DNA of 54,044 nt, taken from positions 1 to 54,044 of the forward strand of contig CAITSA010000027.1 in assembly GCA_903894955.1 (NCBI GenBank), written 5' to 3'. Source of the stretch: an uncultured bacterium. GTDB taxonomy: Bacteria > Patescibacteriota > Minisyncoccia > Phycocordibacterales > UBA9973. Positions 1 to 40,652 of the stretch are shown here, one piece after another; position 1 is the stretch's first letter, and the number at the start of each line of letters is the position of its first letter. The translations under genes were made by a program, and so were the position numbers. The notes beneath the pieces are model-generated. The model searched no databases. It saw only the letters and a program-made list of their open reading frames with translations, and was not told where the DNA came from.

Positions 1-343
1 ATCTTCTCGACGCTCGCACGCTTTCATTTTCTCCAAAAAAATCTTGGGAAATCCTTTTGAATGCTTGGGATTTTAATTCTCCCGCCACATTTACGCGCGA
101 AGCGCGCGATGCATTTTTGGGATGCTCTACTAACTGGCTCCCTCTATACGACAAACTCCGAACTTATTTTCAAAACAATACTGAAAGCTAATGTGTACGC
201 TCGACGTTTTTCTTAATTTTAATATTTCCACTACGCTCGGCTAATGTACTAATTCAAATGAACTCGGAAAATGGAAACAAAAGTTTTGGGGATTAGGATT
301 TTCATTTTCCTCGGCTGTATCTTTTGGCGAGATTTCAAATTCT

Positions 344-376
344 GCCCGCAAGAGGGGTTTGGGGAGGAATGCGGGC
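344..376. terminator. GC-rich hairpin immediately beyond the last gene of the R-M operon
   Basis: GCCCGCA (344-350) pairs with TGCGGGC (370-376). On the + strand it is followed by TTTATTTA. On the - strand it lies 6 nt after the DUF45 stop but has no clean T-tract. Confidence 0.35.
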
Positions 377-381
377 TTTAT

Positions 382-942
382 TTATCTTATATGCTTCCTT
401 AACATCTTACTTACCTGATTAAGATTCGGAATTTGAAGTTTCACTAAATCCCAGAATTTCTTTGAATGGTTAAATTCTTTTAAATGGCATAATTCATGAA
501 CGATCAGATAATCTTGTAGTTCTTTCGGAAGAAAGATAATTTTATAGTTAAAATTAAGATTTCCTTTTTTAGAACAACTACCCCAGCGTGTCTTTTGATT
601 TTTAATAGATATTTTGTTGTAATGAAATTTATAAAATTGATTAAAATACTCAACTCTGTTTTTAACTAATTCAAGAGATATATCTTTATTTTTTATATAC
701 TCTCTTTTTGTACCCTTAAAAACAGCAATATTTTGTTTTAAATTAAAAAAATCAATTTTTTCCTTAATCCAACTAATTTTATTTTCAATAACAGATAAAA
801 TTCGTGAAAAAAGGACATTTTCCGGATACACTGCCACGACTGAACCATCACAATATACTGCTATGCGCATACGCTTAGCTTTTTTACTTTTTTTGATATC
901 AACAGTTATGTTTTGATTTTTTATTAAAAGTTTTCTTTTCAT
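382..942 (-). CDS. DUF45/YgjP-like HExxH zinc metallopeptidase, terminal gene of the type I R-M operon
   Basis: 186-aa ORF. WGSCSKKGNLNFNYKIIFLP...LIVHELCHLKEFNHSKKFW matches the DUF45/YgjP signature with HExxH. The start lies 2 nt after the hsdR stop. Confidence 0.75.
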   Translation of the reverse strand: MKRKLLIKNQNITVDIKKSKKAKRMRIAVYCDGSVVAVYPENVLFSRILSVIENKISWIKEKIDFFNLKQNIAVFKGTKREYIKNKDISLELVKNRVEYFNQFYKFHYNKISIKNQKTRWGSCSKKGNLNFNYKIIFLPKELQDYLIVHELCHLKEFNHSKKFWDLVKLQIPNLNQVSKMLRKHIR

Positions 943-944
943 AA

Positions 945-3863
945 TTAAAACTTCTTAAGAATTACATCAATTAATCTGTTTAAATACTTTTGAAAATCAC
1001 GAACCATTAGACTGTCTTTATATTCTTGTAAGAGCATTTGTTGAACCTGTCTCTTTATGTCTTTTAGAAAATCTTCTCTGCGAGCTGTGTCTTGCCAGCC
1101 TTCGTCAAGCAAATCGTTTAAATATAGAGCTAAATCAATTGAAAATTGCTTTAGCGAATCTTTTTCAATTTCTCTGACATATCCTTCTTCTTTGGAAAGA
1201 GAATAGAGCGCAAATTGTTCCATATTGAGACCTAAATCTTTTGCTTCAAGATCAACTTTCTTAATATCTCCTGCCAAGTTATATAGTTTTTTTAATGTCT
1301 CTTGTAGTGTCGTCTGTCGTTTTTCAAACTCTGTTTTAATAATCATTAATCTTTCAGAAAACTTTTTAAATATCGGACTAGTGTCTAGGTTTATTGAGAT
1401 TTCATAATTCAAAGCTCGTTCAAGCATTCTAGCTTTGTCTTCATCCTGATCTTTGTATTTTTCAAGTTCTGCGAACTGGTCAAGCCGAACCGGAGTATAA
1501 TTTTTTGTGATTCCTTCAAAATCTACCTTAGATTGAATAATTCCTTTTAGTTTTGAACCATATTCAGAAAGTAGAGCGTAAACATCTCTAGTGTCGACTT
1601 CAAATTCTTTTTTAAATGCTATATAAAAACAAGCAAACCATTCTATCTGTCTTGTAAACGGCAAGAGATATGGGTCTGGAGAAATTATTTCATAAAAGAG
1701 TTTCAATTTATTCCATCCTTCTTTAAAATCTTCTTGTTTTTCAGGATTATCTCTAAAAATTTCAAAACATTTTCGCAAGTTTTCCATTGACGGATTTTCT
1801 GTATTTATTCCTTTGAAAATACTATCTACTTTTTCAAAGCTGGTTTCAAATTCTTTTTTAATAGAATTCATATCTATCATTGATTCCGCTATCTCGTCTT
1901 CGTCAAAATCCAACGCATCTTTTAAATTTTTAGTGATTCCATAATAATCAATTATCAAACCATTTGATTTTTGCGGATATGTTCTATTTGTACGAGCTAT
2001 CGCCTGCAAAAGGTTGTGATGTTGCAGTGGCTTATCTATATACATCGCTTGTTCAACTGGAGCATCAAAACCAGTCAAAAGCATATCGCACACAAGCAAA
2101 AATTTAAGCGGTTGATTTTTATCTTTGAATTTCTTTATAACATCTTTTATTTCGTTCTTAGTTTTATTGTATTTACTAAGTTCTTCTGTGTCGGTATTTA
2201 CTTCACCCGGAGAATAAATAACCTCCGAATATTCTTTCGGCATTATTTGGTCAAAAATTTCTTTATATCTAGCTGTTGTCTCTCGATCATAGCAAACGAC
2301 TTGAGCCTTAAACCCCGCAGGGGCAACATAGGTATTGTAATGCTCATAGATATCTCTAGCCACAGCTTGCATTCTTTTTTCTAGTTTAGTAAAGGCTTGT
2401 TTTCTGCTGTATTTTTTAGAAAGTAAATCTTTTTGTTCTACTGACAAATCACTTGTCGACAAGTCAAACTGTGCGTCAACTTCTTTCTCGTCTATAGAAA
2501 ATTTTGATAGTCTTGCCTCGTACACCACCGGAACCGTCGCATTGTCTTCTATTGCTTGTTTTATTGAATAATAATCAAGATATCTCTCTGGGTTACCAGA
2601 AGTCAAAAGACCAAATTCTTCGTGTGTTTTAGATATAGGAGTACCGGTAAAGCCTATCATACTAGCGTTTGGTAAAGAATGTCTTAGATATATTCCTAGG
2701 CTTCCATATTGAGTACGGTGCGCTTCATCAATTAAAACAATAATGTTTGAAGCCTCATTTTTTATATCTTTAATATTTTCATCAAACTTGTGAACTGTTG
2801 AAATAAAAATCCCAGCTTCCGGAGAACTGACGACTTTGAGTAATTGTTCCCTTGATGTCACACGTTCAACATTTTCTCCTCCGCAGTTTATGAAAGTCTC
2901 AAAAATCTGATCGTCCAAATCAACTCTATCTACGAGTATAAAAATTTTAGGATTTTCTAAAAGTTTTTCATAGCGTAATTTCCACGCTGTGAAAAACATC
3001 GTCAAACTCTTTCCAGACCCTTGAGTGTGCCAAACAAGCCCTCTCTTATGCTTGCCTTCTTTTATTCGTTCAAAAATTTTATTAGTTGCTCGAAATTGCT
3101 GATATCGCGCGATTTTTTTTACCAAACCATCATCTGTGGCTTCAAAAACTATAAAATTTTGAATAATATCTAATAAATTACGTCCAGCCAAAAGCGCAAC
3201 AAGAGTGCTTTCCAGTTTTCCCTTATATTCTTCTTCAATTTCCTTATCTTTCCATTCTAGAAAACCTTGCTCCGGTGAATATGTTGTTCCATATACAGTT
3301 TTAATTCCATCTGTGGCTATATTAAAACAATTAGGAATAAAAAGACTTTTAGCATTTCGCTCATAACGCTTTATCTGCCCTATGGCAATAAAATAATCAA
3401 CTTGTTCGGAAGCTGTCGGGCTTTTTGCCTCAATATCAATTATCGGGATTCCGTTCAAGAAAATTAAAATATCTGGTCTAATATTTTCAGCATTTCCGGC
3501 AAAATAAAATTGATTAGTAACGACAAAATGATTGCTATCTACATTATCAAAATCCACAATCTTATAATTTTTTGTCTTACGAGTTTCAGAATCAATCAAG
3601 TCAACGCCATTTCTCATTAGCTCCAAAAATTCCTTATTGGTTTCAATTCCACGAATTATCTGAACAATATTCCTCATTTCACCGCTTTCAACTTTGCCAT
3701 TAATCCGGCGAATAGCATCCTGCAAAAGTGGTTCGGCAATATACTCATTCTCGTAATGTCGCAATTTATCAAAAATCTCCGGCTTAATGTATTCAAAACC
3801 AAGTTCTTTTTGAATAAATGTAATAATGTGATTTTCTATTGTATATTGTTCGTTGAATTTCAT
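945..3863 (-). CDS. hsdR: Type I restriction enzyme R subunit (nuclease-helicase)
   Basis: 972-aa ORF with an N-terminal D...ExK nuclease region (RPDILIFLNGIPIIDIEAK). SF2 motifs: HTQGSGKSLTM (Walker A), VLIDEAHRTQYG (DEAH), GFTGTP and LQAIARTNR. Confidence 0.93.
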   Translation of the reverse strand: MKFNEQYTIENHIITFIQKELGFEYIKPEIFDKLRHYENEYIAEPLLQDAIRRINGKVESGEMRNIVQIIRGIETNKEFLELMRNGVDLIDSETRKTKNYKIVDFDNVDSNHFVVTNQFYFAGNAENIRPDILIFLNGIPIIDIEAKSPTASEQVDYFIAIGQIKRYERNAKSLFIPNCFNIATDGIKTVYGTTYSPEQGFLEWKDKEIEEEYKGKLESTLVALLAGRNLLDIIQNFIVFEATDDGLVKKIARYQQFRATNKIFERIKEGKHKRGLVWHTQGSGKSLTMFFTAWKLRYEKLLENPKIFILVDRVDLDDQIFETFINCGGENVERVTSREQLLKVVSSPEAGIFISTVHKFDENIKDIKNEASNIIVLIDEAHRTQYGSLGIYLRHSLPNASMIGFTGTPISKTHEEFGLLTSGNPERYLDYYSIKQAIEDNATVPVVYEARLSKFSIDEKEVDAQFDLSTSDLSVEQKDLLSKKYSRKQAFTKLEKRMQAVARDIYEHYNTYVAPAGFKAQVVCYDRETTARYKEIFDQIMPKEYSEVIYSPGEVNTDTEELSKYNKTKNEIKDVIKKFKDKNQPLKFLLVCDMLLTGFDAPVEQAMYIDKPLQHHNLLQAIARTNRTYPQKSNGLIIDYYGITKNLKDALDFDEDEIAESMIDMNSIKKEFETSFEKVDSIFKGINTENPSMENLRKCFEIFRDNPEKQEDFKEGWNKLKLFYEIISPDPYLLPFTRQIEWFACFYIAFKKEFEVDTRDVYALLSEYGSKLKGIIQSKVDFEGITKNYTPVRLDQFAELEKYKDQDEDKARMLERALNYEISINLDTSPIFKKFSERLMIIKTEFEKRQTTLQETLKKLYNLAGDIKKVDLEAKDLGLNMEQFALYSLSKEEGYVREIEKDSLKQFSIDLALYLNDLLDEGWQDTARREDFLKDIKRQVQQMLLQEYKDSLMVRDFQKYLNRLIDVILKKF

Positions 3864-4594
3864 ATCTTTTTTGATAGTTCGCTAATAATTACTTTTGCAA
3901 AGTCAAGAAACACACGCTTAAAATTCTCATACTCTTCTTTTTCTAATTTTATTTCTTCCTTATCTTTATATTTAGTTTTATAGGTAGTATCTCTTACTTG
4001 GTTCAAAAAACCATGATCAACTTTACTATTATTGTGAACAATAATATTTCTCAAGGCTTCTCCAAGAATCATTAAATCTTTTCCGGAATCTTCTAATTCG
4101 ATATTTATACTCAAATATTCTTCAAAAAATCTTAGTGTACTTTTTAAATCTTGAAAATTTACTTCACCCTTTAGCGAAGTCAAAACTAATTCACCAACAG
4201 TTGGAGCAGAGTATCTTAATAAAGTTACATCCACGGGTAATTTTTTCTTTGATTCTGGCCAAGTTATAATACTTGGATATTTATCTATTATATTTTTTAC
4301 CAAACTATTTAAAAAAGACTCAAAATTTTCAACAATTAACACCAATGCTTGATTGTGAATAATTTCATATTTCTTTTTTAAAGATTTATGCTCTTTTATA
4401 TTACGGATTGTTTCAATTGTAGTATTTAATTTGTTTTTATACTCAAGAAAAGCAGGCATATTCTCATACTTCTTTTCTAAACCTTCCAGAAGTGAAACAA
4501 CTAAATTACCCACATCATCACCAATATTTATAATTTGATCTATCATTTTTAGATTCTCCTCAAAATTTTCTTTTACAGAATTTAAGTTTTCCAT
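3860..4594 (-). CDS. Uncharacterised helical protein with HEPN-like R-x4-H motif, inserted between hsdS and hsdR
   Basis: 244-aa ORF with an ATGA overlap with hsdR and a 1-nt overlap with hsdS. GEALRNIIVHNNSKVD (nt 4031-4057) gives R-N-I-I-V-H in the C-terminal third. The family call is tentative. Confidence 0.5.
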   Translation of the reverse strand: MENLNSVKENFEENLKMIDQIINIGDDVGNLVVSLLEGLEKKYENMPAFLEYKNKLNTTIETIRNIKEHKSLKKKYEIIHNQALVLIVENFESFLNSLVKNIIDKYPSIITWPESKKKLPVDVTLLRYSAPTVGELVLTSLKGEVNFQDLKSTLRFFEEYLSINIELEDSGKDLMILGEALRNIIVHNNSKVDHGFLNQVRDTTYKTKYKDKEEIKLEKEEYENFKRVFLDFAKVIISELSKKI

Positions 4595-5736
4595 TATTTT
4601 ACTCTGACTTTTCCGTTCAAGAGATCCGACATTAATCCCTTTTTTAATTGGATAAGTTTTTCTTTTAACTTTTTGTTAACTGTAATTTTTTCATCTACAC
4701 TCGAAAGAATTTCTGTAATTTTTTCTTGTTCAGGTTTTTTGGGAACAGCAAAAATAGCTTGTTCCAAATATTTAAAATGACGATTATATCCTGTGTTTGG
4801 TATATCTAGTTTTAATAATGAATAAAATAAAAATTTAGGATCATTTTCTTTTTTTGCCCAAATTATTTTAGTTCCATCATTTCCTAATACATAAGGAAAA
4901 TCTATATATTTTAGTATTCTTGTGTGGTCACCAAAAATTATTGTGGGGATTTTTTCTTGAAGCAAATCATTGCTATCTGTGTATCCTGTAATAAAACTTT
5001 GTGCTTGGTCAATTATTGGATATCTCCCTTGTTCTTTGTAATCAGACTTTTTTAACCCTTGTAATTTAGAAGCAACGTCAAAACAATCATTAAATGATTT
5101 TACTTGCCAATTTTCTGGAATTTCTCCAAGTTTTGTTTTTTTGAATTTAGTATGTCCAATACCTTTTGTTAAAAGCTCTTGCATTAAACCTGACTTTATT
5201 TTTCCAGTTTCCTCAATAATTTTCTCCGTCTTTTCAATATCTTCATCCACCTTACTTAAAATTTCAGCAATTTTTTCTTGCTCAAGTTTTAATTTCGGCA
5301 AACAAACAGGTAATTCCATCAATACTTCTTTATTTAATTTTTTCCTAGTTCCACCAGTTGTGTAAATATCTAAATTTACCCAATTTAAATATTGTTCAAG
5401 GTAAATATTAGAAGATAATCCTTTTGCTTTTAAGACATGCGCATGATTATTTACCCAACTTTTACCTTTTACAATAAAAGACTTATTAACGAATGGTAAC
5501 CAATCAGCACCGTCCTCCCCAATAACAAGAATTTCTTCGTCAAAAATAAAATCACCAACATAATCAATAATTCCGGTTGCACCATAATAAGGAATATCCC
5601 CAGAAACTCTGTCAGATTTAGTAATAGGGATTCTTCTATTGTCTAAGTTGTTGCATAAATTAGAAAGTGGTAATATTTGCCACCCATCCGGAATATTTTT
5701 TTCTTTTAAATTAATCATTTTATATACTAAAAACAT
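4594..5736 (-). CDS. hsdS: Type I R-M specificity subunit
   Basis: 380-aa ORF with two target-recognition halves. Each half is followed by a conserved helical spacer (LEQEKIAEILSKVDEDIEKTEKII...LMQELLTKG and PEQEKITEILSSVDEKITVNKKL...LMSDLLNGK). An alternative start, MINLKEK at 5718, lies 1 nt after the upstream stop. Confidence 0.9.
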   Translation of the reverse strand: MFLVYKMINLKEKNIPDGWQILPLSNLCNNLDNRRIPITKSDRVSGDIPYYGATGIIDYVGDFIFDEEILVIGEDGADWLPFVNKSFIVKGKSWVNNHAHVLKAKGLSSNIYLEQYLNWVNLDIYTTGGTRKKLNKEVLMELPVCLPKLKLEQEKIAEILSKVDEDIEKTEKIIEETGKIKSGLMQELLTKGIGHTKFKKTKLGEIPENWQVKSFNDCFDVASKLQGLKKSDYKEQGRYPIIDQAQSFITGYTDSNDLLQEKIPTIIFGDHTRILKYIDFPYVLGNDGTKIIWAKKENDPKFLFYSLLKLDIPNTGYNRHFKYLEQAIFAVPKKPEQEKITEILSSVDEKITVNKKLKEKLIQLKKGLMSDLLNGKVRVK

Positions 5737-6571
5737 TATTGCCTATATCTTTACTACATTCATCACAATAACTATTGTGACCATAATTAGATGCTGATAA
5801 CCAGTTTCTTGTAAATTGCTTTCCGCATTTTATACACTTTTGAGATCCCAAAGATGCCAAGCGTATCCCATTATTAAGTTCTGCGGAAGTAACTATATTA
5901 ATAGGCTCACTCAACACACTTGACCCCCAAACAACACCATGGGTTGATTGAGAACGATCTTTTTTTATTTCCTTAATTTGTTTTTCTAAATCACTAATTT
6001 TTTTCTTTAATTCCTGTTCAATTTTCTCATCATTTGCAGAAGCTAACTCTTTTCTCTTTTCAAGAAGTTCAATCATCACAGATTGTGCTGCATCTTTATA
6101 TTTCTTTTCAATTTCAGCTTCTTTTTCACTTTTTTCTTTTAATTCTGGGACAATATCTATCCAATCTGCTAAACCAGAAGCAATATTGAGTTCAATTGTT
6201 GAAATATGCCTATTAATTTCTTCTAATATATTTTTACCCTCTGTTTTTTTAGTTTTTTTTAAAAAATCATCAACCCAAATTTTTACATTACAAAGCTGTG
6301 TACTAATACCTTGTAGATTACGAAGGGCAGATCTTCCTTTCTTTTCTAAAATATTTTGCCCGACTATTTTTTCATAATCATCCTTTACAAAACTTCCAGC
6401 AAAACCAGCAAAGAAGCTCCCGAGAACAGTAAGCAATGTTGAAAAAAGAGTATTGTCTTTAAAAAAGTATGCAAAAATCAAACTTAATACAGTAAAAAGA
6501 CTAAAAATAGCAGCCCCAGGACTAGAGGTAACGTTCCAAAATATTTTCCACTTTTCTTTTTGAGTTTTCAT
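5720..6571 (-). CDS. Uncharacterised 2-TM / coiled-coil / C-terminal zinc-ribbon protein inserted between hsdM and hsdS
   Basis: 283-aa ORF with two hydrophobic helices (AAIFSLFTVLSLIFAYFF, LLTVLGSFFAGFAGSF) and a long Lys/Glu heptad-like stretch. The C-terminus has CIKCGKQF...17 aa...CDECS (CxxC...CxxC). I recognise no family. Confidence 0.6.
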   Translation of the reverse strand: MKTQKEKWKIFWNVTSSPGAAIFSLFTVLSLIFAYFFKDNTLFSTLLTVLGSFFAGFAGSFVKDDYEKIVGQNILEKKGRSALRNLQGISTQLCNVKIWVDDFLKKTKKTEGKNILEEINRHISTIELNIASGLADWIDIVPELKEKSEKEAEIEKKYKDAAQSVMIELLEKRKELASANDEKIEQELKKKISDLEKQIKEIKKDRSQSTHGVVWGSSVLSEPINIVTSAELNNGIRLASLGSQKCIKCGKQFTRNWLSASNYGHNSYCDECSKDIGNNVFSI

Positions 6572-6575
6572 TTTT

Positions 6576-8273
6576 CTAATATTTTAATTCTTTTAAATAC
6601 CCCTCGACTTTTTTGTTAATTTCTTCTTTTTCTTTCTCAATTTGCTTTAATTCTTTCCACACGACTGAAACATCAATTTTTTCCTCTATTTCCGATGAGT
6701 CAATGTATCGGCGAACATTTAAGTTATAATCATTTTCTTTTATCTCTTCTGCACTGATTACTCGTGCATATTTATTTATATCCTTCCAGTTATCAAAAGC
6801 AGAAGCAATTTTTTCTATATCTTGGTTACGAAGCGAGTTTTGATTTTTTCCTTCTTGATAATCACGCTCGGCATCTATAAACAGAATTTTATTCTTGTGA
6901 TTTGCCGGTTTTGTTTTATTTAAGATTAACAAGGCTACAGGAATACCTACTCCGAAGAAAAGCTTGGAAGGCATAGCGATAACTGCTTCTATTAAGTCAT
7001 TTTTTAAAACTTGTTCACGAATTCTGCCAGAAGTGTCGGATTTAAAAAGCACGCCGTGGGGCACAACAATACCGGCTTTGCCATTTTCGTTTAAAGATTT
7101 AATGATGTGGAGAATAAAAGCATAATCAGCATTTTTCTTTGGTGGGAGTTCATATCCATCTGTGCGAGCGTGTTTATCATGCACAAAAGTGTCCCATTCC
7201 CATTCTTTTATAGAATAAGGGAAGTTTGCAACAACGTGGGAAAAAGTCTGCATTTTTCCAGCTTTGTCTAGAAATTGAGGGTCTGCAAGAGTATCTCCTC
7301 GGCGGATGTCGGTACTTTCAAGTCCGTGCAAGAACATATTTATTTTTGCAATTCCGAAAGTTCCAATTTCTATTTCTTGGCCAGACAAGTACATCTTGCG
7401 AGCTTCTTTATCACTAAATTTTTCACGAACATAATGATAAGCTTCAAGTAGAAAACCTCCCGAGCCACAGGTCGGATCATGGACATGACTTTTTGCATCC
7501 GGTTTTATTATTTTCATTATTACTCTTTCAATTTCTCTCGGACTGTAGAACTGGCCTCCTTTTTTGCCGGAGTCGGAAGCAAATTGCTTTATAAGATATT
7601 CATAAGCATCACCGAGAATATCAGAATTTATATAAGTGTTTCCAAAATTATATTTTGAAAAATGATTTACAAGACGTTGAAGTGTTTCATTGGGAAAACG
7701 GTCTTTGTCAGCAAAATTTAAATTATTAAAAATTTTATCAAGCTTTGGACTATTGGCGGTAGTTATTTTATCAAAAACATCATTAAACTTTGCGCCTATG
7801 TTGATAGCTTCTTTCTGAATCTCAGACCAACGACAATCTTTAGGAACTTGAAATTTATGATTGTAATCTGCGTGAGCAAGTTCTTCGTCGTGAAATTTTT
7901 CTAAAATACTTTCATATTCTTCATCCCAGACATCACTTATTCTTTTATAAAATAGAAGTCCGAAAATATAAGTCTTGTAATCTCCACTATCAATTTTCCC
8001 TCGGAGAATGTCTGCGCTTTTCCAAAGAAAAGATTTAAGAACTTCAAGCGACATTTTTTCTTCTTTCTCCGGTGCATCTTTGTCTAAATTCATAACAGGA
8101 TGGGCTAATCCTTTATCAACTATTTTATTTATGATATCTTGTGTATATCTTCGGTCTTGCCTTTTACCCACGCGTAGAGGTTTGATAAGACCCTGGTCTT
8201 CCCAATTACGGAGAGTATCTTCATGAACGCCTAAAATTTTCGCTGCTTCTTTTATTGAATAATTATTGGTCAT
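6576..8273 (-). CDS. hsdM: Type I R-M N6-adenine DNA methyltransferase subunit with fused N-terminal MerR/excisionase-type HTH
   Basis: 565-aa ORF with the SAM motif DPTCGSGGFLLEA and the catalytic motif VVANFPYS (NPPY-like). The first ~55 aa (YSIKEAAKILGVHEDTLRNWEDQGLIKPLRVGKRQDRRY) look like a MerR/excisionase HTH. Confidence 0.93.
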   Translation of the reverse strand: MTNNYSIKEAAKILGVHEDTLRNWEDQGLIKPLRVGKRQDRRYTQDIINKIVDKGLAHPVMNLDKDAPEKEEKMSLEVLKSFLWKSADILRGKIDSGDYKTYIFGLLFYKRISDVWDEEYESILEKFHDEELAHADYNHKFQVPKDCRWSEIQKEAINIGAKFNDVFDKITTANSPKLDKIFNNLNFADKDRFPNETLQRLVNHFSKYNFGNTYINSDILGDAYEYLIKQFASDSGKKGGQFYSPREIERVIMKIIKPDAKSHVHDPTCGSGGFLLEAYHYVREKFSDKEARKMYLSGQEIEIGTFGIAKINMFLHGLESTDIRRGDTLADPQFLDKAGKMQTFSHVVANFPYSIKEWEWDTFVHDKHARTDGYELPPKKNADYAFILHIIKSLNENGKAGIVVPHGVLFKSDTSGRIREQVLKNDLIEAVIAMPSKLFFGVGIPVALLILNKTKPANHKNKILFIDAERDYQEGKNQNSLRNQDIEKIASAFDNWKDINKYARVISAEEIKENDYNLNVRRYIDSSEIEEKIDVSVVWKELKQIEKEKEEINKKVEGYLKELKY

Positions 8274-8396
8274 AGGGGTAGTATATACCTATTCGTTTCA
8301 AATGTCAAGTGTATTACACTTTTTCCTAACTCTTCCTATGTTGCTAACCTAGGAATAGGTAAAAGTTAATAGTTTTATTAATATAAGGTATTTGCC

Positions 8397-8987
8397 TTGT
8401 TTAAATATATGCTACAATACCCATATATGTCCGACGAACCATTAAATAACGAGCAAATAGAGCCTTCTAGCCCATTACCCATAAATACAATGGGTTCTGA
8501 GCCTATTAATATGCCCCCTGAAGCCCCAGAATCCCCTAAAAACGCAGAGATACCCGTTTCCCTCAATAATGATAATCCAGAAAATGAGCCTATTTCCACC
8601 CCTAGCCCCGAGGAAGCCATCCCATTAGAATCAACGGATCTGCCAGCAAATCCTGCTTCAAACGGAACAAATGAACCCTTGGTTGAGCCAGTTTCCGAAA
8701 CCCGAACGGCTCAAGTACCAGTAAATGAGCCGTTGGTGAAAATATCTCTCGCTCGTGAACTTCTCGTTAAAGCTAGAAATATGATTCAATTTCGAAAAAG
8801 AAAGAAATTAGATCGTGTTATGACTTTGTTTTTGAAAAAATCTAAAATTACAAATGACGAAGTTAGAGAATTTTTGCACGTATCGGATGCAACGGCTGAA
8901 AGATATTTAAATGCTTTAGAAAAAGAAAATAAAATTAAACAAACCGGAAAAACTGGGCACTCGGTATTTTATCAAAAAGTAATATAA
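8397..8987 (+). CDS. Pro/Glu-rich protein with C-terminal winged-helix DNA-binding domain
   Basis: 196-aa ORF with a low-complexity N-terminal half. The C-terminus ITNDEVREFLHVSDATAERYLNALEKENKIKQTGKTGHSVFY looks like a DeoR/MarR-style wHTH. The true start is uncertain (Met at 8397, 8409 and 8427). Confidence 0.55.
   Translation: MFKYMLQYPYMSDEPLNNEQIEPSSPLPINTMGSEPINMPPEAPESPKNAEIPVSLNNDNPENEPISTPSPEEAIPLESTDLPANPASNGTNEPLVEPVSETRTAQVPVNEPLVKISLARELLVKARNMIQFRKRKKLDRVMTLFLKKSKITNDEVREFLHVSDATAERYLNALEKENKIKQTGKTGHSVFYQKVI
8702..8737. repeat. 36-nt hairpin-forming element inside the wHTH gene, inverted copy of 9777-9812
   Basis: ccgaacggctcaagtaccagtaaatgagccgttggt. The reverse complement of 9777-9812 matches at 34 of 36 positions by my manual alignment. 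Confidence 0.8.
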
Positions 8988-8998
8988 TTTATTTATTT

Positions 8999-9496
8999 AT
9001 GAAATGGGTCGCTATCGCCGGAGCTTGGAGAAAAACAAATAAGCAAGTCGAAGAAGACGTCAGAAAAACGGTTAAAGAAATAATTTCTCAAAGAAACGGA
9101 ATAATATCCGGCGGAGCTTTGGGAGTTGACTATTTTGCAACCGATGAAGCCTTGAAACTTGGCTGTGATTCAAAACAAATTAAAATTTTTATTCCCTCAA
9201 CTCTTGAAATTTATAAAACTCATTATTTTAATCGAGCCAAAGAAGGAGTTGTAACAGAAGAACAGGTAAAATCTCTTATTGCTCAATTAGAAAAAATAAA
9301 AGAGCTGAATGCATTAGTAGAAGGAAAAGATATTATTTTAAATAAAGAAATATATTTCAATAGAATTACGGAAATTATTAAAAATGCCGATGAATTGGTT
9401 GCTTTTCATGTAAATAAAACCGAAGGAACCCAAGACACGATTGATAAAGCAAACAAGAAAGGGATTTCTGTTAAGATATTTGAATATTCTATCTAA
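8999..9496 (+). CDS. SLOG/DprA-like Rossmann-fold protein (predicted nucleotide binding)
   Basis: 165-aa ORF. VAIAGAWR...GIISGGALGVDYFATDEAL resembles the GGxxGxD loop of DprA/YpsA/LOG-type SLOG domains. Tentative. Confidence 0.45.
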   Translation: MKWVAIAGAWRKTNKQVEEDVRKTVKEIISQRNGIISGGALGVDYFATDEALKLGCDSKQIKIFIPSTLEIYKTHYFNRAKEGVVTEEQVKSLIAQLEKIKELNALVEGKDIILNKEIYFNRITEIIKNADELVAFHVNKTEGTQDTIDKANKKGISVKIFEYSI

Positions 9497-9905
9497 GGGA
9501 GCAAGCCGTCCCCTCTTTTCCTCACGGCGGTTTTGTGCGCGAATGGGAGGGTGGGTCAAGCACATGCATTTTCCGCCTCGGGCATTTCCGCTAGGGTGTC
9601 CACGACTAAAGGACGAGTGCCTGACCCGAATTGCAATCCAGAAATCGAAAGCGAAAGCTACACACTAAACACAATATTGTAAAACGTAGAGTGGGGATGG
9701 CGAGGGCAGACTCCGACTCTGTCGGAGAGCCCGACCCGGGGAGAGGAAACTTCCTCTCCCCAAGAAGCGCGGAAATCCGAACGGCTCATTTACTGGTATT
9801 TGAGCCGTTCGGCTTTTCCGCTCATAGGCATCTAGGCACTCGTAGCCCTAGCAGAAATGCCCGAGGCGGATGCCGAGGGTGTACTCCTACCAACGTTGCA
9901 TAGCG
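9497..9905. ncRNA. GC-rich, heavily base-paired non-coding element (unclassified structured RNA or MITE-like insertion)
   Basis: G+C jumps sharply relative to the flanks. A long-range helix pairs 9573-9596 with 9846-9869 (24 nt, 1 mismatch), and 9613-9622 pairs with 9834-9843. Internal hairpins sit at 9711-9727, 9738-9761 (9 bp) and 9777-9812 (11 bp). Its ORFs are Arg/Gly/Pro junk. Confidence 0.45.
9777..9812. repeat. 36-nt hairpin, inverted partner of 8702-8737
   Basis: ccgaacggctcatttactggtatttgagccgttcgg, an 11-bp perfect stem. Confidence 0.8.
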
Positions 9906-9917
9906 AAAGGATTTTCT

Positions 9918-10280
9918 ATGAGAGTAGTTGGTGTAAATAAAAATAATAAAGAAATTCAGGGTGTTGAACTTGTCGATCTAGAAACATTGTTAAAAGAAAG
10001 TGATGTTATTGTAGTAACCGTTCCACTCACTAATAAAACAGAAAATCTATTATCTTCAAAAGAGTTTGATTTAATGAAAAAAGGGGCTATTCTTGTTTCT
10101 ATTTCTAGAGAGAAAATTATAAATAAAGACGCAGTGTTGAAGGCTATAGATACAGGAAGTATCGCTGGTTTCGGCATTGACGCAGATATTACGACCCCGA
10201 TTGCAAAAGATGATCCGTGGTTATTGTCTATTGTATCAAAAAATTTAAATTGCAGGTTTAAATATCCCTTTTTCTTCTAA
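9918..10280 (+). pseudogene. Fragment of a D-isomer-specific 2-hydroxyacid dehydrogenase (part of the NAD-binding domain only)
   Basis: ESDVIVVTVPLTNKTENLLSSKEFDLMKKGAILVSISREKIINKDAVLKAIDTGSIAGFGIDA is typical of this family. The N-terminal catalytic and GxGxxG part is missing, as is the C-terminal catalytic His region. The fragment abuts the GC-rich element. Confidence 0.6.
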
Positions 10281-16641: not shown

Positions 16642-16714
16642 AAGTTTTGCATTTAATCGTTTGGTTTGGTAATATGTAAAAGTTATATATTTTGGTCGTT
16701 AGACTTAGGTATAT

Positions 16715-18885: not shown

Positions 18886-19042
18886 TATGTATCAAGAGTG
18901 GCGGTAGAGAATTGGCTCGATAACCCCACAGCAACCTGCAAATGTAAGGTGCTAAATCCAACCAGACACGAAAGTGTCAGGAAAGATAAGTTTGCGTCTA
19001 GTCCACGTAAAAAATCTTTCCTCTTTATTAGAGGAATTTTTT
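18886..19042 (+). promoter_or_regulatory. SAM-I (S-box) riboswitch with terminator expression platform
   Basis: TATCAAGAG-TGGCGG-TAGAGA-ATTGGCTCGATAA-CCCCAC-AGCAACC...AAGGTGCTAAATCC...AAAGATAAG follows the SAM-I consensus blocks. Hairpin TTCCTCT-TTATT-AGAGGAA (19018-19036) plus TTTTTT precedes the ATG at 19053. Confidence 0.8.
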
Positions 19043-19530: not shown

Positions 19531-19694
19531 TAGCCTAAACCTTAAGTTTTCTTAGGGCATGGTGAGAATCCCGTGAAGCATAAAGAACTCTTAGTCAGAG
19601 TTCGCCTTCACGGGTCATACTTGGAAACGAGTATGGGTGGTCTAAAAAACCATCAATCTGGCTAAGAGCTTTTTGCGTTTTAGCCTATAAAATC
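19531..19694 (+). promoter_or_regulatory. Candidate structured 5' leader (unclassified)
   Basis: 9-bp helix CCCGTGAAG/CTTCACGGG enclosing AACTCT-TAGTC-AGAGTT. 8-bp helix CATACTTG-GAAA-CGAGTATG with a GNRA tetraloop. Further helices GGTGGT/ACCATC and GGCTAA/TTAGCC. It ends 10 nt before the ATG at 19695. Confidence 0.4.
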
Positions 19695-29649: not shown

Positions 29650-29656
29650 AACTTTT

Positions 29657-32600
29657 TTAAGGTGTCAAAGTTGTTGAATCAGTGGAAGGAATTACTGCAG
29701 ATGTTGCTGGTAGTGAGCTTGTTTGCCCTGAGTCTGTCGAAGGCGTTGTCACTTCTGGCGTTGGAGTCTCCACTACTGGCTCGACCGCCGAAGCTGAAGT
29801 GGAGGGGGGAGTTGCTGGTTCTGTTGGTGCTGGAGTTTCAGCTGAAGGCTGGTCAGTCACTGGCTCTGACGTTGTACTTGGAGGATGTGCAAGCAAAAGC
29901 AGAGCGTGAACATCGTCTTTGGTTAAACACTCCCCATCCACACAAATTTTTTCTTTAGCATTAAATACATTTGCAAACACATTTCCGATACCATTCCCCG
30001 CATCCGCCAACCAAGTACCAATTTTAATTTTAATATTTGTAAAGAAAGCAGTCACAAAAGATTCCGAAGATGAACCAGGGATTGGGGTGACAGTGCCAGC
30101 CACTCCTTCTAAATTCAAATTCAATTCTTGAATAGCTTTAATAGCAATAGGAACCATTCCTATAGAATTTAAAGATTTCATTCCTTCTTCGTCAGTAGAA
30201 ACTAATTTAGGAACCAAGGCTTCAACTTCTTGAGCAATGAAACCGAGATTTTTAACTGAACCATCTGTTTCATAATTCCAGTTATACAACACAGGCCTTA
30301 AGGACATAACCGTACTTAATCCATAATTCATATCTTCAACATTTTTCTTTAATCGAGCATCGGAACTGCAAGCAATTAAACCTCCAGAAGAGAAAGTACA
30401 GCTAGTGGTATCACTAGCATCCGTAAATTTAGCAATAGTGGCATGAGTAACACTGCCTTTAACTTCTAAAGGAGCTCCGGGAGAGGTCGTCCCAATTCCG
30501 ACGTTGCCAGCAAAATAGTTTTTATCTGACGCACCGGCTTGATATAAACCAAATGGAGAATTTGTCTGTATGCCAGCTGTCTGCGACTCAATATAAACGC
30601 CATAGGTATTTGTCACTGTTCCTCCCGACCCATTATTTAAACCACCGGCATATAATGAATATGCGTTAGAAATTACAGCGCCAGCTACCGTCCCTTGATT
30701 CATCACAAAAGAATAAACTCCGTATGCATTTGTTAATACATTCGTATTTCCCGCACCTGGTGCATTGTATACAGCAAAATTGAGACCGTAAGCATTCGCC
30801 AAAGTGCCAGTTCCTTGGTGTTGGGCTTGCCCATTAATACCCATGATGTTTCCCGTATTATTATATGAACCCTGTTGCACTGCCTGAAAAACTCCAGCTC
30901 GATAGCTACCTGAGGTGCCTGCTGTCGGATTAGAATAGATTATAGGATTATCGGTCATGCTTGTCCCTGATGTAGTGGTATACGTTAGACTCGAAGTTAT
31001 CTTAGTAGCAGTGATTGCCCCAGCCGAAGTTACGTTAAATTGAGAAGATGAACCAACAGATAGCATTTGGGTTGGGCTTGTCGTCCCCACCCCCAATCTA
31101 TTATTTGTATTATCCCAGAAAAAATTAGCATTGTTCTGGGTCAGATATCCACTAGTTGTAGAAATAAAAGGTATTGAGCCAGCAGTTAAAGCAGTAGAAC
31201 CTGAAACTTGGGCTAAGATATTTCTAGTGGTCGAAGGGCTGAAATACAATTGTGTTCCATCATACTCCATTGCTCCAGCTTCGGCTGTTGTAAGATTTGT
31301 GCCGGATGTGAATTTGAGTGGAGCAGTAGAAGCAGTGGCTGTTCCAGCATTTAAATGAAGATAAGCAGTTGGAGAAGAGACTCCCACACCAACGGAACCT
31401 GTATTTGTTATTCTTAAACCATAATTACCCCAAGGTCCAATGACTAAATTACCAGTATTGACAGAGCCATTTGTAAAAATAAGTGCTGAATCGCCTGCTT
31501 GTGTAAGTCCGTTAAAAGAACCCACCGCAAGACTAGGATAAAGACGAATGGCATGACTATCAGAACCCGTAACTGAGAAAATACCTACAAATGATTGGCT
31601 TGCACCAGTGTCCAACGTCAAATTTCCCGAAAAATGACCAGCGCCAGCAACATCCAATTTATACCCTGGCGTCGCCGTCCCAATTCCGACGTTACCTCCA
31701 CTAAATGTAGCTGCATAATTAGTCGTACCTCCGGTTGCATTAACTACTAAACCAGTATTGACTGCAGAAGTCCCATTCCAAGTTCCAGTGCTTTCAATGT
31801 CCATTCCTATTTTGTTAATTGAAGCAGTACTTGAAGTATCGGTGACATTATGAAGGATACCAGTGTAGGCTGTGGTTTTTGCTGCTGAAGATACTGTGTG
31901 AAGTAGAGAGGTTGGAGAAGTGGTGCCGATACCGACGGAGCCGTTATTATTTATCGTCATTGCTAGTGTTGCACTACCAGCATTGTAAGGGTAGAAAACT
32001 AAATTTCCTGTATTGTCTGCCCCGTTTCTTACGGCTCCAATAGAACCAATTGGATTAATAACTCCTGCATCATCTTGAATATTAAAAGCTAATGCTGTCC
32101 CAAACCCATCTCCCATGTCAGAAGTTTTGGTTGTTAATACCCGAACACCCGCAAAAATAGAGTTCGATGTCTGACCACTTCTCTCAAATATTGCGGTGGA
32201 AGTAAGCGCTGAATTGACAGCGTGCAAAATTCCACTTGGCGTCGTCGTCCCAATCCCCACATTCCCACCACTAAAGGTTGCTGCATAATTGGTCGTACCT
32301 CCAGTGGCATTAACTACTAAACCAGTATTGACTGCAGAAGTTCCATTCCATGTACCAGTGCTTTCAATATCCATTCCTATTTTGTTAATTGAAGCAGTAC
32401 TTGAAGTGTCTGTGACACTGTGAAGGATGCCAGTGTAGGCTGTGGTTTTTGCTGCCGAGGAAACTGTGTGGAGCAGAGAGGTTGGAGCGGTTATGCCGAT
32501 GCCAACGTTGCCACCAAAATAATTAGTTCCACTAGATGAATAAAGTGCATAGTTAGCTGTAGCAGCTCCCGAGATATCCCCTATATACAATCCATATTTA

Positions 32601-35600
32601 TTCGTTCCGCTTGAAGCTGTATTAGAAGTTACATAAATTGCATAACTGTTCACTGGAGTACCACTGTCTGACATAGATGAGATGTCTAATCCTTTTATGG
32701 TATTTATTACTCCGGTTCCGGTTCCATAGGCTCCCAATTTCGCCAAACTTAAATTAGTAATATTCCCCGTACTCATAACTCCTCCGTAAAATAACATACC
32801 ATACCCATTTGTAATTGTGCCTGTCCCATAGTGATAAAGTGATCCGGCTATTCCTCTCACGCTCCCAGTATAATTTTGCGAACCATATGGGTTTATACCA
32901 AAATTTCCGGCAAAATGATCATACGTATCTGTGCTTAAATTATTGGTTATCTTAACATAGCTTCCGATACCTAGCACCGCGGATGTAGGATTTGTGACAT
33001 CATTATTAACATATAATTTATAAGTCGGCGTCACCGTTCCAATGCCGACGTTGCCTGAACTTAAAATTCTCATTCTCTCTGTCAGCGCCGTATCACCAGT
33101 AGCATTTCTGGTTGAAAATGCTAGATCTCCAATTGTATTTCCAGTTCCATTGGTAAGTAGCCCCTTTATAGCAGCATAACCGATGGAACTTACAGTTTCT
33201 GATTGAGAATTTCCAAAAACTATCGCACCACCCGCACCAGCAGAACCAGAATTTGAATTTATGGCGAGAGTTCCTGTTTTTACTCCCGCATCAGTTAGTG
33301 CAGCAGTTAATTGACCAGCTCCATATATTTCTGTTTGTGCCATAGGCGTCGCCGTCCCAATCCCCACATTCCCACCACTAAAGGTAGCCGCATAATTAGT
33401 CGTACCTCCGGTTGCATTAACTACTAAACCAGTATTGATTGCGGAAGTTCCATTCCAAGTTCCAGTGCTTTCAATATCCATGCCAATTTTGTTAATTGAA
33501 GCAGTACTTGAAGTGTCTGTGACACTGTGAAGGACGCCGGTGTAGGAAGTTGTCTTTGCTGCTGAAGATACTGTGTGAAGTAGAGAGGTTGGAGCGGTTA
33601 TGCCGATGCCAACAGAGCCGGCAGGTGTAAATGTTGCAATATCTATTTGACCTGTATTTTGTCCCTGTGAGGCATCTCCTGTGTATGTTCCTCCACGAAT
33701 TTTAAATCCACTTGAAACTGACGTGCCTGCTATAACACTATCAACATATGAGACAATGTTTGCTCCTTGTCTCCAAGTTGTCCCATCATAATAGAACGAG
33801 GACATTCCTTGACCGACATCATTTGCAACAACAGTAGTTGGCGATGCTTTTGTTCCTCCTGCAACCATAACATTAATCCCTTTTCCGCCATATGCTCCTG
33901 AACCGTAACTTTCAAATAATATTCCTCTATTGTAGCTTGCTGTAGCTTGCGATTGTGAAGCTAAAATATTCAAATTAGCCCCCGGACTCGTCGTTCCGAT
34001 CCCCACATTCCCACCACTAAAGGTAGCCGCATAATTAGTTGTACCTCCGGTAGCATTAACTACTAAACCAGTATTGACTGCAGAAGTTCCATTCCATGTA
34101 CCAGTGCTTTCAATATCCATTCCGATTTTGTTAATTGAAGCAGTGCTTGAAGTATCGGTGACACTGTGAAGGACGCCGGTGTAGGAAGTTGTCTTTGCAG
34201 CTGAAGATACTGTATGGAGTAAAGAGGTTGGAGAGGTTATACCGATGCCGACGGAGCCAGCATTATCAATACGCATTCGTTCAGTTAAGCTTGTCGCACC
34301 ATTAGTATTTGTAAAAAATGTTATGCGACTACCTTGTGCAGTATCAGTCCATGCTTCATCTGTCATAAAGTTAATCTGCGCTCGTGAACCCGAAGAATAA
34401 CCTGTTGTGCCGTATCCAAACATCCCGATAGAGCCAACTTGTGCTCCCGAAGCCAAAGCACTTGGACTTGCTGCCGTGCCAGCCGCTCGTCGAAAATCTA
34501 ATATTCCGATGCCAGAGTAGGTATCTATAACAGCACGGGTTGTTGCCGAGTCAGCTCCAACAAGGTGGAGATAAGTAGTTGCGGGTGGAGCAACGGGTGC
34601 GACCGTATTCGCATTTATTGTCATCAGAGAGTCCGGACTTGTCGTCCCCACCCCCACATTCCCACCTTTGAAATAGACACCCGTCGTGGATGAAGGTCCA
34701 ATCCAAGATTCAGCTAGAGTGGTTAAAGGATTGAGAGAAGTAGAGTTGGTAATACCTCCAGTCATCGTACCTCCAGCGAGCGGTAGGTCTAAAGAAGAAT
34801 GTCCGGTGAGAGAACCAGTAATCGTTCCAGCAGAGAAATTACCAGAAGCGTCACGAGCGACAATGGTGGAAGCAGTGTTAGCATCAGTGGCATCAGTTCC
34901 AAGAGTGACTCCAGTAGAACCGTTGTAAGAAGTTCCAGTCAGATGTGTGCCAAAAGTTAAGGTACTCAAGTTAGAACCGAGAGCGATGCCACTGATGGTG
35001 GAGTTGGCAAGCATTGCATTGGTGATGGAACTATTGGGTAAAGAAACTGTTCCAATAATGGTTAAGCCACCTGTCCCTTGAATAAGTCCGGATCCAGAAT
35101 TAACTCCGACTGCCGTGACCGCTCCTGCCGAAGAAACTTGAAACTGAGAAGTAGCACCGACAGAGAGAGGAGCAGAAGGCGTCGTCGTCCCAACCCCCAC
35201 ATTCCCATCTTTGAAATAGACACCCGTCGTGGATGAAGGTCCAATCCAAGATTCAGCTAGAGTGGTTAAAGGATTGAGAGAAGTAGAGTTGGTAATTCCT
35301 CCGGTCATGGTGCCTCCAGCGAGGGGTAGGTCTAAAGAAGAATGTCCGGTGAGAGAACCAGTAATCGTTCCAGCAGAGAAATTACCAGAAGCATCTCGAG
35401 CGACAATAGTGGAGGCAGTGTTGGCGTCAGTAGCATCAGTTCCAAGAGTGACTCCAGTGGAACCGTTGTAAGAAGTTCCAGTCAGATGTGTGCCAAAAGT
35501 TAAGGTACTCAAGTTAGAACCGAGAGCAATGCCACTGATGGTGGAGTTGGCAAGCATTGCATTGGTGATGGAACTATTGGGTAAAGAAACTGTTCCAGTA

Positions 35601-40554: not shown

Positions 40555-40652
40555 ACAAAGAATTGTTGACCGAACTGTTACCGGACGGTGGCGTGGCTGG
40601 GACAACCAGCATAGGAAACAATCCGAGAAAAAACCCTTCGGGGTTTTTTCTT
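40555..40652 (+). ncRNA. Candidate ~100-nt small RNA (promoter-to-terminator unit without an ORF)
   Basis: Bounded by the promoter above and the terminator below. It has a GC-rich core with hairpin GCTGG-GACAA-CCAGC and is antisense to the tgt upstream region. Confidence 0.3.

Follow-up and report, generated by a model that had tools for sequence, protein, structure and literature searches.

A conserved structured RNA family within a non-coding frame around variable defence cargo

We analysed a stretch of 54,044 nucleotides (nt) from an uncultured bacterium of the Patescibacteriota (contig CAITSA010000027.1 of assembly GCA_903894955.1), referred to here in its full length as the window. Between a SLOG/DprA-like gene and the fragment of a dehydrogenase gene lies a GC-rich, non-coding element of about 400 nt, which we name module A (9496-9901, + strand). 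An initial annotation, made from the sequence alone, had been drawn to this element by an abrupt rise in G+C content, which is confirmed here as 0.46-0.59 over positions 9400-9900 compared to 0.35 in the whole window; for the element itself it amounts to 52-59%. The annotation offered two readings, namely a large unclassified RNA linked to the winged helix-turn-helix (wHTH) and SLOG genes upstream, or a foreign non-autonomous element, such as a miniature inverted-repeat transposable element (MITE), whose insertion had truncated the dehydrogenase gene. Module A starts at a conserved AGGGAG (9496-9501) that overlaps the stop codon of the SLOG gene, and the similarity of the window copy to the family stops after ...GTTGCATA, at about position 9901, which maps the 3' breakpoint. 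Its parts are given below, with related loci from other contigs designated by L numbers and helices and alignment columns numbered as in the consensus structure described afterwards.

9496-9901, + strand: module A, a structured RNA, homologous over 9494-9902 to L034, L136 and other loci, with 99 of 104 consensus pairs formed
9553-9563, + strand: 5' strand of the outer helix (GGG...GCAC), pairing with 9879-9887; pairing is 94% in helix 3 and 88% in helix 4, with + strand G-U variants
9571-9597, + strand: 5' strand of the closing helix of 25 base pairs (bp), pairing with 9845-9870; helix 5, columns 195-545 GC:53/UA:30 and columns 182-557 GC:81/AU:5
9598-9614, + strand: small hairpin GUCC-loop-GGAC; helix 6, columns 200-230 GC:45/GU:43, a wobble pair only on the + strand
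9617-9621, + strand: 5' strand of a helix pairing with 9835-9839, within the arms 9613-9622 and 9834-9843 of the initial annotation; helix 7, columns 234-535 CG:42/UA:42
9687-9737, + strand: conserved core GUAGAGUGGGGAUGGCGAGGGC with the variable hairpin 9711-9727; helices 9687-9693/9829-9834, 9694-9696/9735-9737 and 9704-9707/9729-9732
9738-9761, + strand: invariant hairpin GGGGAGAGGAAACUUCCUCUCCCC; helix 14, 99.7% paired, with six of ten pairs lacking any variation in 88 sequences
9767-9823, + strand: optional extension helix, present in about half of the family and capped by the hairpin AACGGCUCA-loop-UGAGCCGUU (9778-9811)

The base pairing that the initial annotation described is present in the window. 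The inverted arms at 9572-9596 and 9846-9870 are 25 nt long and 96% complementary with one mismatch, and the arms at 9613-9622 and 9834-9843, which were taken to extend them, are complementary at ten of ten positions. The three internal hairpins lie at 9711-9727 (CTCCGAC-TCT-GTCGGAG), at 9738-9748/9751-9761 (complementary at 11 of 11 positions) and at 9773-9793/9796-9816 (86% complementary). What had been called the closing helix is itself surrounded by the outer helix 9553-9563/9879-9887, and its one mismatch, C9589.A9853, is private to the window copy, as homologues have G there. The predicted minimum free energy is -192 kcal/mol, with z = -8.1 for the + strand and -8.9 for the - strand, and none of 100 shuffled sequences folds as well.

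Homologues were sought in metagenome contigs with the pattern GGGGATGGCGAGG-N15-40-GACCCGGGGAG, which was built from invariant blocks of the element. At least 120 metagenome loci match this core pattern, and nine further loci were reached through homologues of a spurious 90-amino acid (aa) open reading frame (ORF) in the element; the family counts that follow are among these matches, which include 88 full copies less than 98% identical to one another. Over 9494-9902, identity to the window is 77-89% in contigs L026-L034; the closest relative among the matches listed, L136, shares 92% with the window copy. A consensus structure of 104 pairs was scored on an alignment of the 88 sequences. These pairs are 92.5% paired, compared to 34-48% when the partners are slid by one to three columns. 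Shuffling the columns gives 186 ± 18 compensated cells, compared to 568 in the alignment, a count that no shuffle out of 500 attains. Double changes, affecting both sides, are found at 44 of the 104 pairs. All helices named in the initial annotation are kept in homologues from other assemblies, several of them via compensatory changes, and they are therefore not due to chance.

Variation is unevenly spread over the structure. The variable hairpin 9711-9727 (helix 13) shows compensatory changes at seven of its seven pairs, and helices 9-11 are nearly invariant. The invariance of the hairpin GGGGAGAGGAAACUUCCUCUCCCC suggests sequence-specific recognition. In the roughly half of the family that lacks the extension helix, a short GCGGGC hairpin takes its place; compensatory variants of the extension hairpin stem are found in L069, L125 and L093. 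At many pairs Watson-Crick and G-U pairing alternate, for example at columns 199-542 (CG:44/UG:42) and 317-528 (GU:42/GC:41) as well as in helix 6. Because the G-U alternates would be A.C mismatches on the - strand, the RNA is on the + strand, which is also the strand of the upstream genes.

The unclassified status that the initial annotation gave to the element, subject to a comparison with Rfam, holds. A cmscan of positions 9300-10100 with Rfam 15 yielded no match at the gathering score, and at E ≤ 10 only chance-level matches, the best of them BjrC80 with 19.7 bits compared to a gathering score of 80. The same database gave no match over the element in 12 full-length related loci. This comparison takes in GOLLD, ROOL, OLE, HEARO, raiA, RNase P, tmRNA, 6S, SRP, group I and II introns and riboswitches. 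ARAGORN found no tmRNA in the window, only tRNAs at 16714 and 46636, and the tRNAs of related loci lie outside the element. No meaningful match to the element was obtained by blastn against phage and plasmid collections, and the 21-mer of the invariant hairpin has no match in 2.9 million IMG/VR viral contigs. Among candidate matches in viral contigs, one to the hairpin pattern was rejected as an unrelated terminator and four to a looser core pattern were rejected as chance, all of them being coding sequence of high-GC genomes. A group II intron was rejected since there is no Rfam match, the element starts with AGGGAG, and the hairpin GAACGGCUC...GAGCCGUUC is optional and, from a reading of its sequence, lacks the polarity of domain V. 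A search of full-text literature and preprints found no account of the module A RNA. Strong covariation, strand-specific G-U pairs and the lack of an Rfam match bear out the first of the two readings in the initial annotation as far as a large structured RNA of no known class is concerned. The structured RNA of module A is real, conserved and specific to the + strand, and its family is absent from Rfam 15.

In relatives, conservation extends about 330 nt past module A, through a linker and into a second structured module, which we name module B. The linker carries AAAAUGGUAUAAU-GCCCGAGACAAUG and a TGnTATAAT promoter-like box. Module B is 300-500 nt long and includes a hairpin, GCCCGCA-loop-UGCGGGC, and a long hairpin with compensatory changes at 13 of 13 pairs (85.6% paired, compared to 29-54% when slid). 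Module A, linker and B are contiguous in 70 of the 88 loci having enough downstream sequence. At least 24 loci carry, besides this forward copy, a second B in inverted orientation 2-9 kb upstream of A. The paired copies are 120-508 nt long with 85-100% identity, and they bracket hypervariable, defence-rich cargo; this arrangement is typical of the family. The inverted repeat begins just beyond the linker, and TATAAT-type boxes point outward at the inner edge of the right B and of about half of the left copies inspected. The order of the frame is inverted B, 2-9 kb of cargo, often a wHTH gene, module A, linker and forward B. This conserved frame, of which module A is one component, is non-coding and surrounds variable defence cargo.

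The cargo within this frame is hypervariable: grouping its 260 ORFs of 150 aa or more yields 155 clusters. In 147 representatives, scans with Pfam and PADLOC identified components of Type I, II and III restriction-modification systems, Shedu SduA, components of MADS, ATPases of the AAA_21 and AAA_15 families of AbiEii/AriA/AbiL type and, in seven loci, a cluster of reverse transcriptases from diversity-generating retroelements (DGRs). In the window, the frame and its cargo occupy the left end of the stretch, up to the dehydrogenase fragment:

36-372 (approximate), - strand: inverted left copy of module B, sharing 83-93% identity with what follows module A in L026, L116 and L060 (BLAST)
382-8273, - strand: cargo of the window, a Type I restriction-modification operon with a peptidase gene (Pfam and ORF list), made up of the next six ORFs
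382-942, - strand: YgjP-like peptidase (Pfam)
945-3863, - strand: HsdR (Pfam)
3860-4594, - strand: cargo ORF of unknown function (ORF list)
4594-5736, - strand: HsdS, named from its translation and from homologous cargo in L026 and L029
5720-6571, - strand: cargo ORF of unknown function (ORF list)
6576-8273, - strand: HsdM, named on the same grounds as HsdS
8397-8987, + strand: wHTH gene, encoding a disordered Pro/Glu-rich N-terminus and a C-terminal winged helix (Pfam HTH_24, E = 1.4e-4)
8698-8734, + strand: inverted copy of the 9780-9816 hairpin inside the wHTH ORF, with 35 of 37 bases matching
8999-9496, + strand: SLOG/DprA-like gene (Pfam DNA_processg_A, E = 4.9e-7), specific to the window and located between the wHTH gene and module A
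9918-10280, + strand: D-2-hydroxyacid dehydrogenase fragment (Pfam 2-Hacid_dh_C, E = 2.2e-25), covering positions 60-166 of the 178-position NAD-binding domain

In the left B of the window, both hairpins are present, GCCCGCA-loop-UGCGGGC and the long one (GCCGAGGAAAAUG...CAUUUUCCGAG), together with two blocks, GAGCGUAGUGG and GUCGAGCGU. Linker and right B are absent after position 9901; when B was compared to the whole window by BLAST, only the left copy (about 36-372), 9.1 kb to the left, was found. The dehydrogenase fragment adjoins the 3' breakpoint of module A, and about 75 nt of linker and the entire right B are missing there. The simplest reading is that a deletion took the linker, the right B and the 5' part of the dehydrogenase gene together, which suggests that the island was formerly located in or beside that gene. 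A single inversion that split the dehydrogenase gene was rejected, since the ORF at 382-942 is a complete YgjP-like peptidase and not the missing dehydrogenase half. The fragment has an AAAGGA ribosome-binding site of its own and an ATG at 9918, directly after the breakpoint (9902-9925), and its truncated product might for this reason still be translated. The window copy of module A is structurally intact in an incomplete context. The second reading in the initial annotation, a foreign non-autonomous element, stands insofar as module A lies within a foreign-looking island (about 36-9901) that adjoins a truncated dehydrogenase gene and is bounded by inverted repeats in relatives; its MITE component fails, as described below.

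The outer end of module B (...AAAAGAYACUCC) often neighbours tRNA genes. A large serine recombinase element with Resolvase, Recombinase and Zn_ribbon_recom domains is joined at the same point of this end in L033 (1348-2886), L065, L089, L121 and L117. The junction reads ...AAAAGAYACTCC followed by GCAATCAAA...AAAATTTTCG, and either copy of B can be joined. The identical junction in five loci suggests that the end of module B is the attachment site of this element. IS110-family transposase genes lie in or beside the A/B frame at differing points, namely in L080 (+335 to +1300), in L062 (-1323 to -109), where the insertion falls between the wHTH gene and module A, and in four other loci. The loop of the first hairpin of module B is C-rich (UUCCUCCCCAAACCCCUC) and resembles an anti-Shine-Dalgarno sequence. 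The first 140 nt or so of the window are also repeated in L060, and in that locus the sequence just outside B recurs in inverted orientation 1.4 kb away (2974-3114 and 4545-4685). Given this inverted repetition outside B, B-type repeats may form arrays with more than two copies per genome.

Module A has a close positional relationship to the coding sequence upstream. In 73 of 93 loci, an ORF of at least 70 aa on the same strand terminates no more than 60 nt from the module A start; the remainder mostly have a 55-aa ORF at this point. The distance from the stop codon of the co-oriented gene to module A is nearly always about 20 nt or less; because the module abuts coding sequence in this way, no conserved promoter was found upstream of it. 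A cis-regulatory leader or riboswitch was rejected because module A lies on the 3' side of such an ORF (at least 73 of 93 loci) and because the downstream genes are not conserved.

The link to the wHTH and SLOG genes proposed in the initial annotation applies to the first of the two and not to the second. Homologues of the wHTH gene, identified by tblastn, lie directly 5' of module A in 44 of 101 loci, and the wHTH ORF cluster, which spans 51 loci, is the largest cluster common to the islands. The gene also co-occurs with the optional hairpin of module A: the wHTH gene, the module A hairpin and the inverted hairpin copy inside the gene are all present in 36 loci and all absent from 40, with about 11 exceptions. 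The loops of the in-gene and module A hairpins are roughly reverse-complementary throughout. The N-terminal half of the wHTH protein (8397-8740) is of low complexity and rich in Pro, Glu, Ser and Asn, and its coding DNA has an unusually high GC content and a C skew. Despite the embedded 37-nt palindrome, relatives conserve this half at the protein level. A SLOG gene, by comparison, is found beside module A in none of 128 related loci, and the downstream regions of 24 SLOG loci from genomes of the candidate phyla radiation (CPR) contain neither the element nor any similar GC island. In relatives, the slot after the wHTH gene and before module A is either empty or taken up by a 55-aa ORF. The SLOG gene of the window therefore fills a variable slot as a window-specific insertion. 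An exact-protein look-up returned no entry on record for the SLOG and CysK proteins of the window. In L104 and in L030, L031 and L099 (3805-5801), a DGR takes the place of the wHTH gene; it comprises bAvd, a reverse transcriptase and a target protein of 1130 aa, a PemK gene lying in between, and ends directly where module A starts.

We consider the best explanation as a whole, with a probability of roughly 0.55, to be that module A is an RNA that functions within this island frame. Transcription of the cargo operon would yield module A as a structured 3' terminus, which would be either kept as a 3' untranslated region or excised at the long closing helices, and its invariant core and hairpin would be the means by which it works as an RNA. 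Where the extension hairpin is present, in half of the family, module A would probably be bound by the co-encoded winged-helix protein, and the inverted copy of the hairpin in the wHTH mRNA could allow feedback control.

Several points weigh against this explanation. The ends of the module A RNA, its processing and its co-transcription with the upstream gene are features that we infer from sequence. The homologues were gathered with a pattern that lies within the core, and the invariance of those 24 core bases is therefore built in. No protein is universally tied to module A, and more than half of the loci are without a wHTH gene, so the part of the model that concerns this protein is limited to a subfamily. 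A palindromic operator in double-stranded DNA fits the pair of hairpins equally well. The complementarity of the two loops is not specific to the locus (1164 of 5000 permutations do as well); we therefore claim no RNA-RNA contact and have withdrawn loop-loop covariation between the wHTH gene hairpin and the RNA hairpin as a candidate. The window copy, lacking linker and right B, may be a non-functional remnant. Finally, the host contigs, many of them from groundwater and lake metagenomes, look like CPR bacteria (Patescibacteria) by an indirect assignment, based on relatives of the SLOG gene, on an AT-rich, small-genome context with LOOT and DUF3800-IX RNAs, and on the origin of many contigs in the ultra-small fraction of groundwater; the matches include 0.1-µm fractions of Hainich groundwater and sites in lake hypolimnia.

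We speculate, with less confidence than in the explanation above, that modules A and B together could be a new gene-cassette frame in CPR bacteria, in which the RNAs would help to capture, flip, express or silence anti-phage cargo with the wHTH protein. If so, the islands could tentatively be described as an RNA-framed defence-island system, with two inverted, transcribed B modules and an ornate A module of 400 nt, for which there would be no described counterpart.

Among alternatives to a function of module A within the island frame, the one that survives best, which we regard as unlikely, is that A, linker and forward B form a single housekeeping RNA gene of about 750 nt. Such a gene would be chromosomal and lineage-specific, and its conservation would make it an insertion hotspot for mobile islands and serine recombinase elements in the manner of tRNA and tmRNA genes; the inverted upstream B would then have arisen secondarily, when an island inserted or the region was rearranged. 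The contiguity of A, linker and B in 70 of 88 loci favours this reading, together with unbroken conservation from -200 to about +540. In the five loci named above, the junction of the serine recombinase element falls precisely on the outer end of B (...AAAAGAYACUCC followed by GCAAUCAAA), tRNA genes frequently lie beyond this end, the closing-helix sequence AAUGCCCGAG recurs in the linker, permitting alternative pairing, and the 21-mer of the invariant hairpin is without a match in the 2.9 million viral contigs. However, B also occurs alone, inverted and distant from A, and some of its copies have promoter-like boxes of their own. The inverted repeat starts only after the linker, and A and B therefore behave as separable modules. 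In addition, A lies in every case right against the stop codon of a variable cargo gene, an odd place for a housekeeping RNA gene.

It is less probable still that the functional unit is DNA, with the segment from left B to right B being transposon-like or invertible, B serving as its terminal inverted repeats, and module A and the AACGGCTCA palindromes serving as protein-binding or recombination sites. Long inverted repeats do surround variable cargo in at least 24 loci, although the window has the left repeat only, and many contigs start and end inside B, as the window does at its start. The AACGGCTCA...TGAGCCGTT sites are an inverted pair with conserved arms beside a gene for a DNA-binding fold, yet neither a split nor an inversion between the two palindromes is seen in any of 44 wHTH genes. 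The islands have no transposase or recombinase in common and share only the wHTH cluster (51 loci); the serine recombinase (ten loci) and IS110 (six loci) are separate insertions. No target-site duplication was seen at nine inspected pairs of outer ends, which were set only by BLAST and are imprecise. The strand-specific G-U pairs and compensatory changes throughout A would be unneeded by DNA sites.

The MITE reading, in which the arms 9572-9596 and 9846-9870 would be terminal inverted repeats and the insertion would have truncated the dehydrogenase gene, is already refuted by strand-asymmetric covariation. It had drawn on the 25-nt inverted repeat with its one mismatch and on the position of the element beside a truncated gene. 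This repeat is an internal RNA helix, as conserved sequence and further enclosing helices reach 75 nt further to the left and 30 nt further to the right, and its arms covary with G-U pairs on one strand only. There is one copy in the 54-kb window and one pattern match in each of 129 loci, at a fixed position after an ORF and without target-site duplications. A small GC-rich protein, encoded by the 90-aa ORF at 9631-9903 or the 49-aa ORF at 9533-9682, has next to nothing to recommend it, as the initial annotation had recognized in calling the translations of the ORFs Arg/Gly/Pro-rich junk: the internal ORFs have no Pfam match, the ten database proteins that weakly resemble the 90-aa ORF are all gene calls of 54-150 aa on the same element in other contigs, with no Pfam domain, a conserved reading frame is excluded by indels of 1 and 2 nt in the conserved core and by a hairpin that is wholly present or absent, and the substitutions are compensatory across helices without a codon pattern.

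Several known systems share features with the modules described here. GOLLD (RF01998), ROOL (RF03087) and HEARO (omega RNA), large ornate RNAs of bacteria with links to mobile DNA, are, like module A, several hundred nt long, GC-rich relative to their hosts and multi-branched with strong covariation; they too were found in metagenomes, in mobile or variable regions and sometimes beside tRNA genes. Module A differs from them in having no cmscan similarity, apparently CPR-like hosts, a position directly after a cargo stop codon, no partner of IscB/TnpB type and an invariant hairpin found in no IMG/VR contig. A unique trait of module A is that it is paired with another module, B, whose two copies flank the island in opposite orientations. 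P2/P4-like hotspots, the immigration control region of Escherichia coli and sites of integron or SCCmec type likewise have a conserved frame around restriction-modification or anti-phage cargo, and here, too, a recombinase element (of the serine type) docks at a fixed point of the frame. The A/B frame differs from these hotspots in that it is composed of structured non-coding modules rather than core protein genes, its ends are inverted copies, and there is no dedicated integrase.

The island also resembles transposons of Tn10/Tn5 type, in which inverted repeats surround cargo and promoter-like boxes point outward at the repeat edges, and the RNA-OUT/RNA-IN pair of IS10, in which, as here, an RNA hairpin is complementary to a hairpin in a neighbouring mRNA. 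In contrast to Tn10 and Tn5, the island has yielded no transposase and, at the outer ends inspected, no target-site duplication, and the repeats are structured modules of 300-500 nt rather than insertion sequence copies. Ribosomal proteins such as L1, S8 and L20 bind both their RNA partner and a mimic of it in their own mRNA. Similarly, the stem sequence of the module A hairpin recurs inside the mRNA of the adjacent small protein, and hairpin and gene are gained or lost together. The wHTH system differs from that of the ribosomal proteins in that the mRNA copy is inverted and shares only the palindromic stem, not the loop, and a winged helix is more often a DNA binder, binding to the RNA being putative.

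Large, highly conserved structured RNAs are rare, and new classes have tended to reveal new biochemistry. CPR bacteria (Patescibacteria) make up a large share of bacterial diversity, and to our knowledge few CPR-specific RNA families have been described. The family of module A is real as a new RNA family with an unusual genomic architecture. It is abundant and strongly covarying, and it has an unusual genomic grammar in being fused to the 3' end of the last cargo gene, in its association with the inverted pair of B modules and in enclosing defence genes with a fast turnover. If the RNAs do act in cassette exchange, inversion or expression control, this would be a new mechanism of defence-island organization. 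Regardless of mechanism, module A provides a sequence marker for CPR defence islands and a defined target for structure determination.

Other RNAs and one long ORF were observed elsewhere in the window. Rfam identifies a SAM-I riboswitch at 18886-18992 (+ strand, 61 bits), a LOOT RNA at 19532-19654 (+ strand, 86 bits) and a DUF3800-IX RNA at 40560-40628 (+ strand, 44 bits), in addition to two tRNAs; LOOT RNA is also present in the related locus L060. A single ORF of 2929 aa occupies 29657-38446 on the - strand, with a GC-rich patch at its 3' end (29656-29951).

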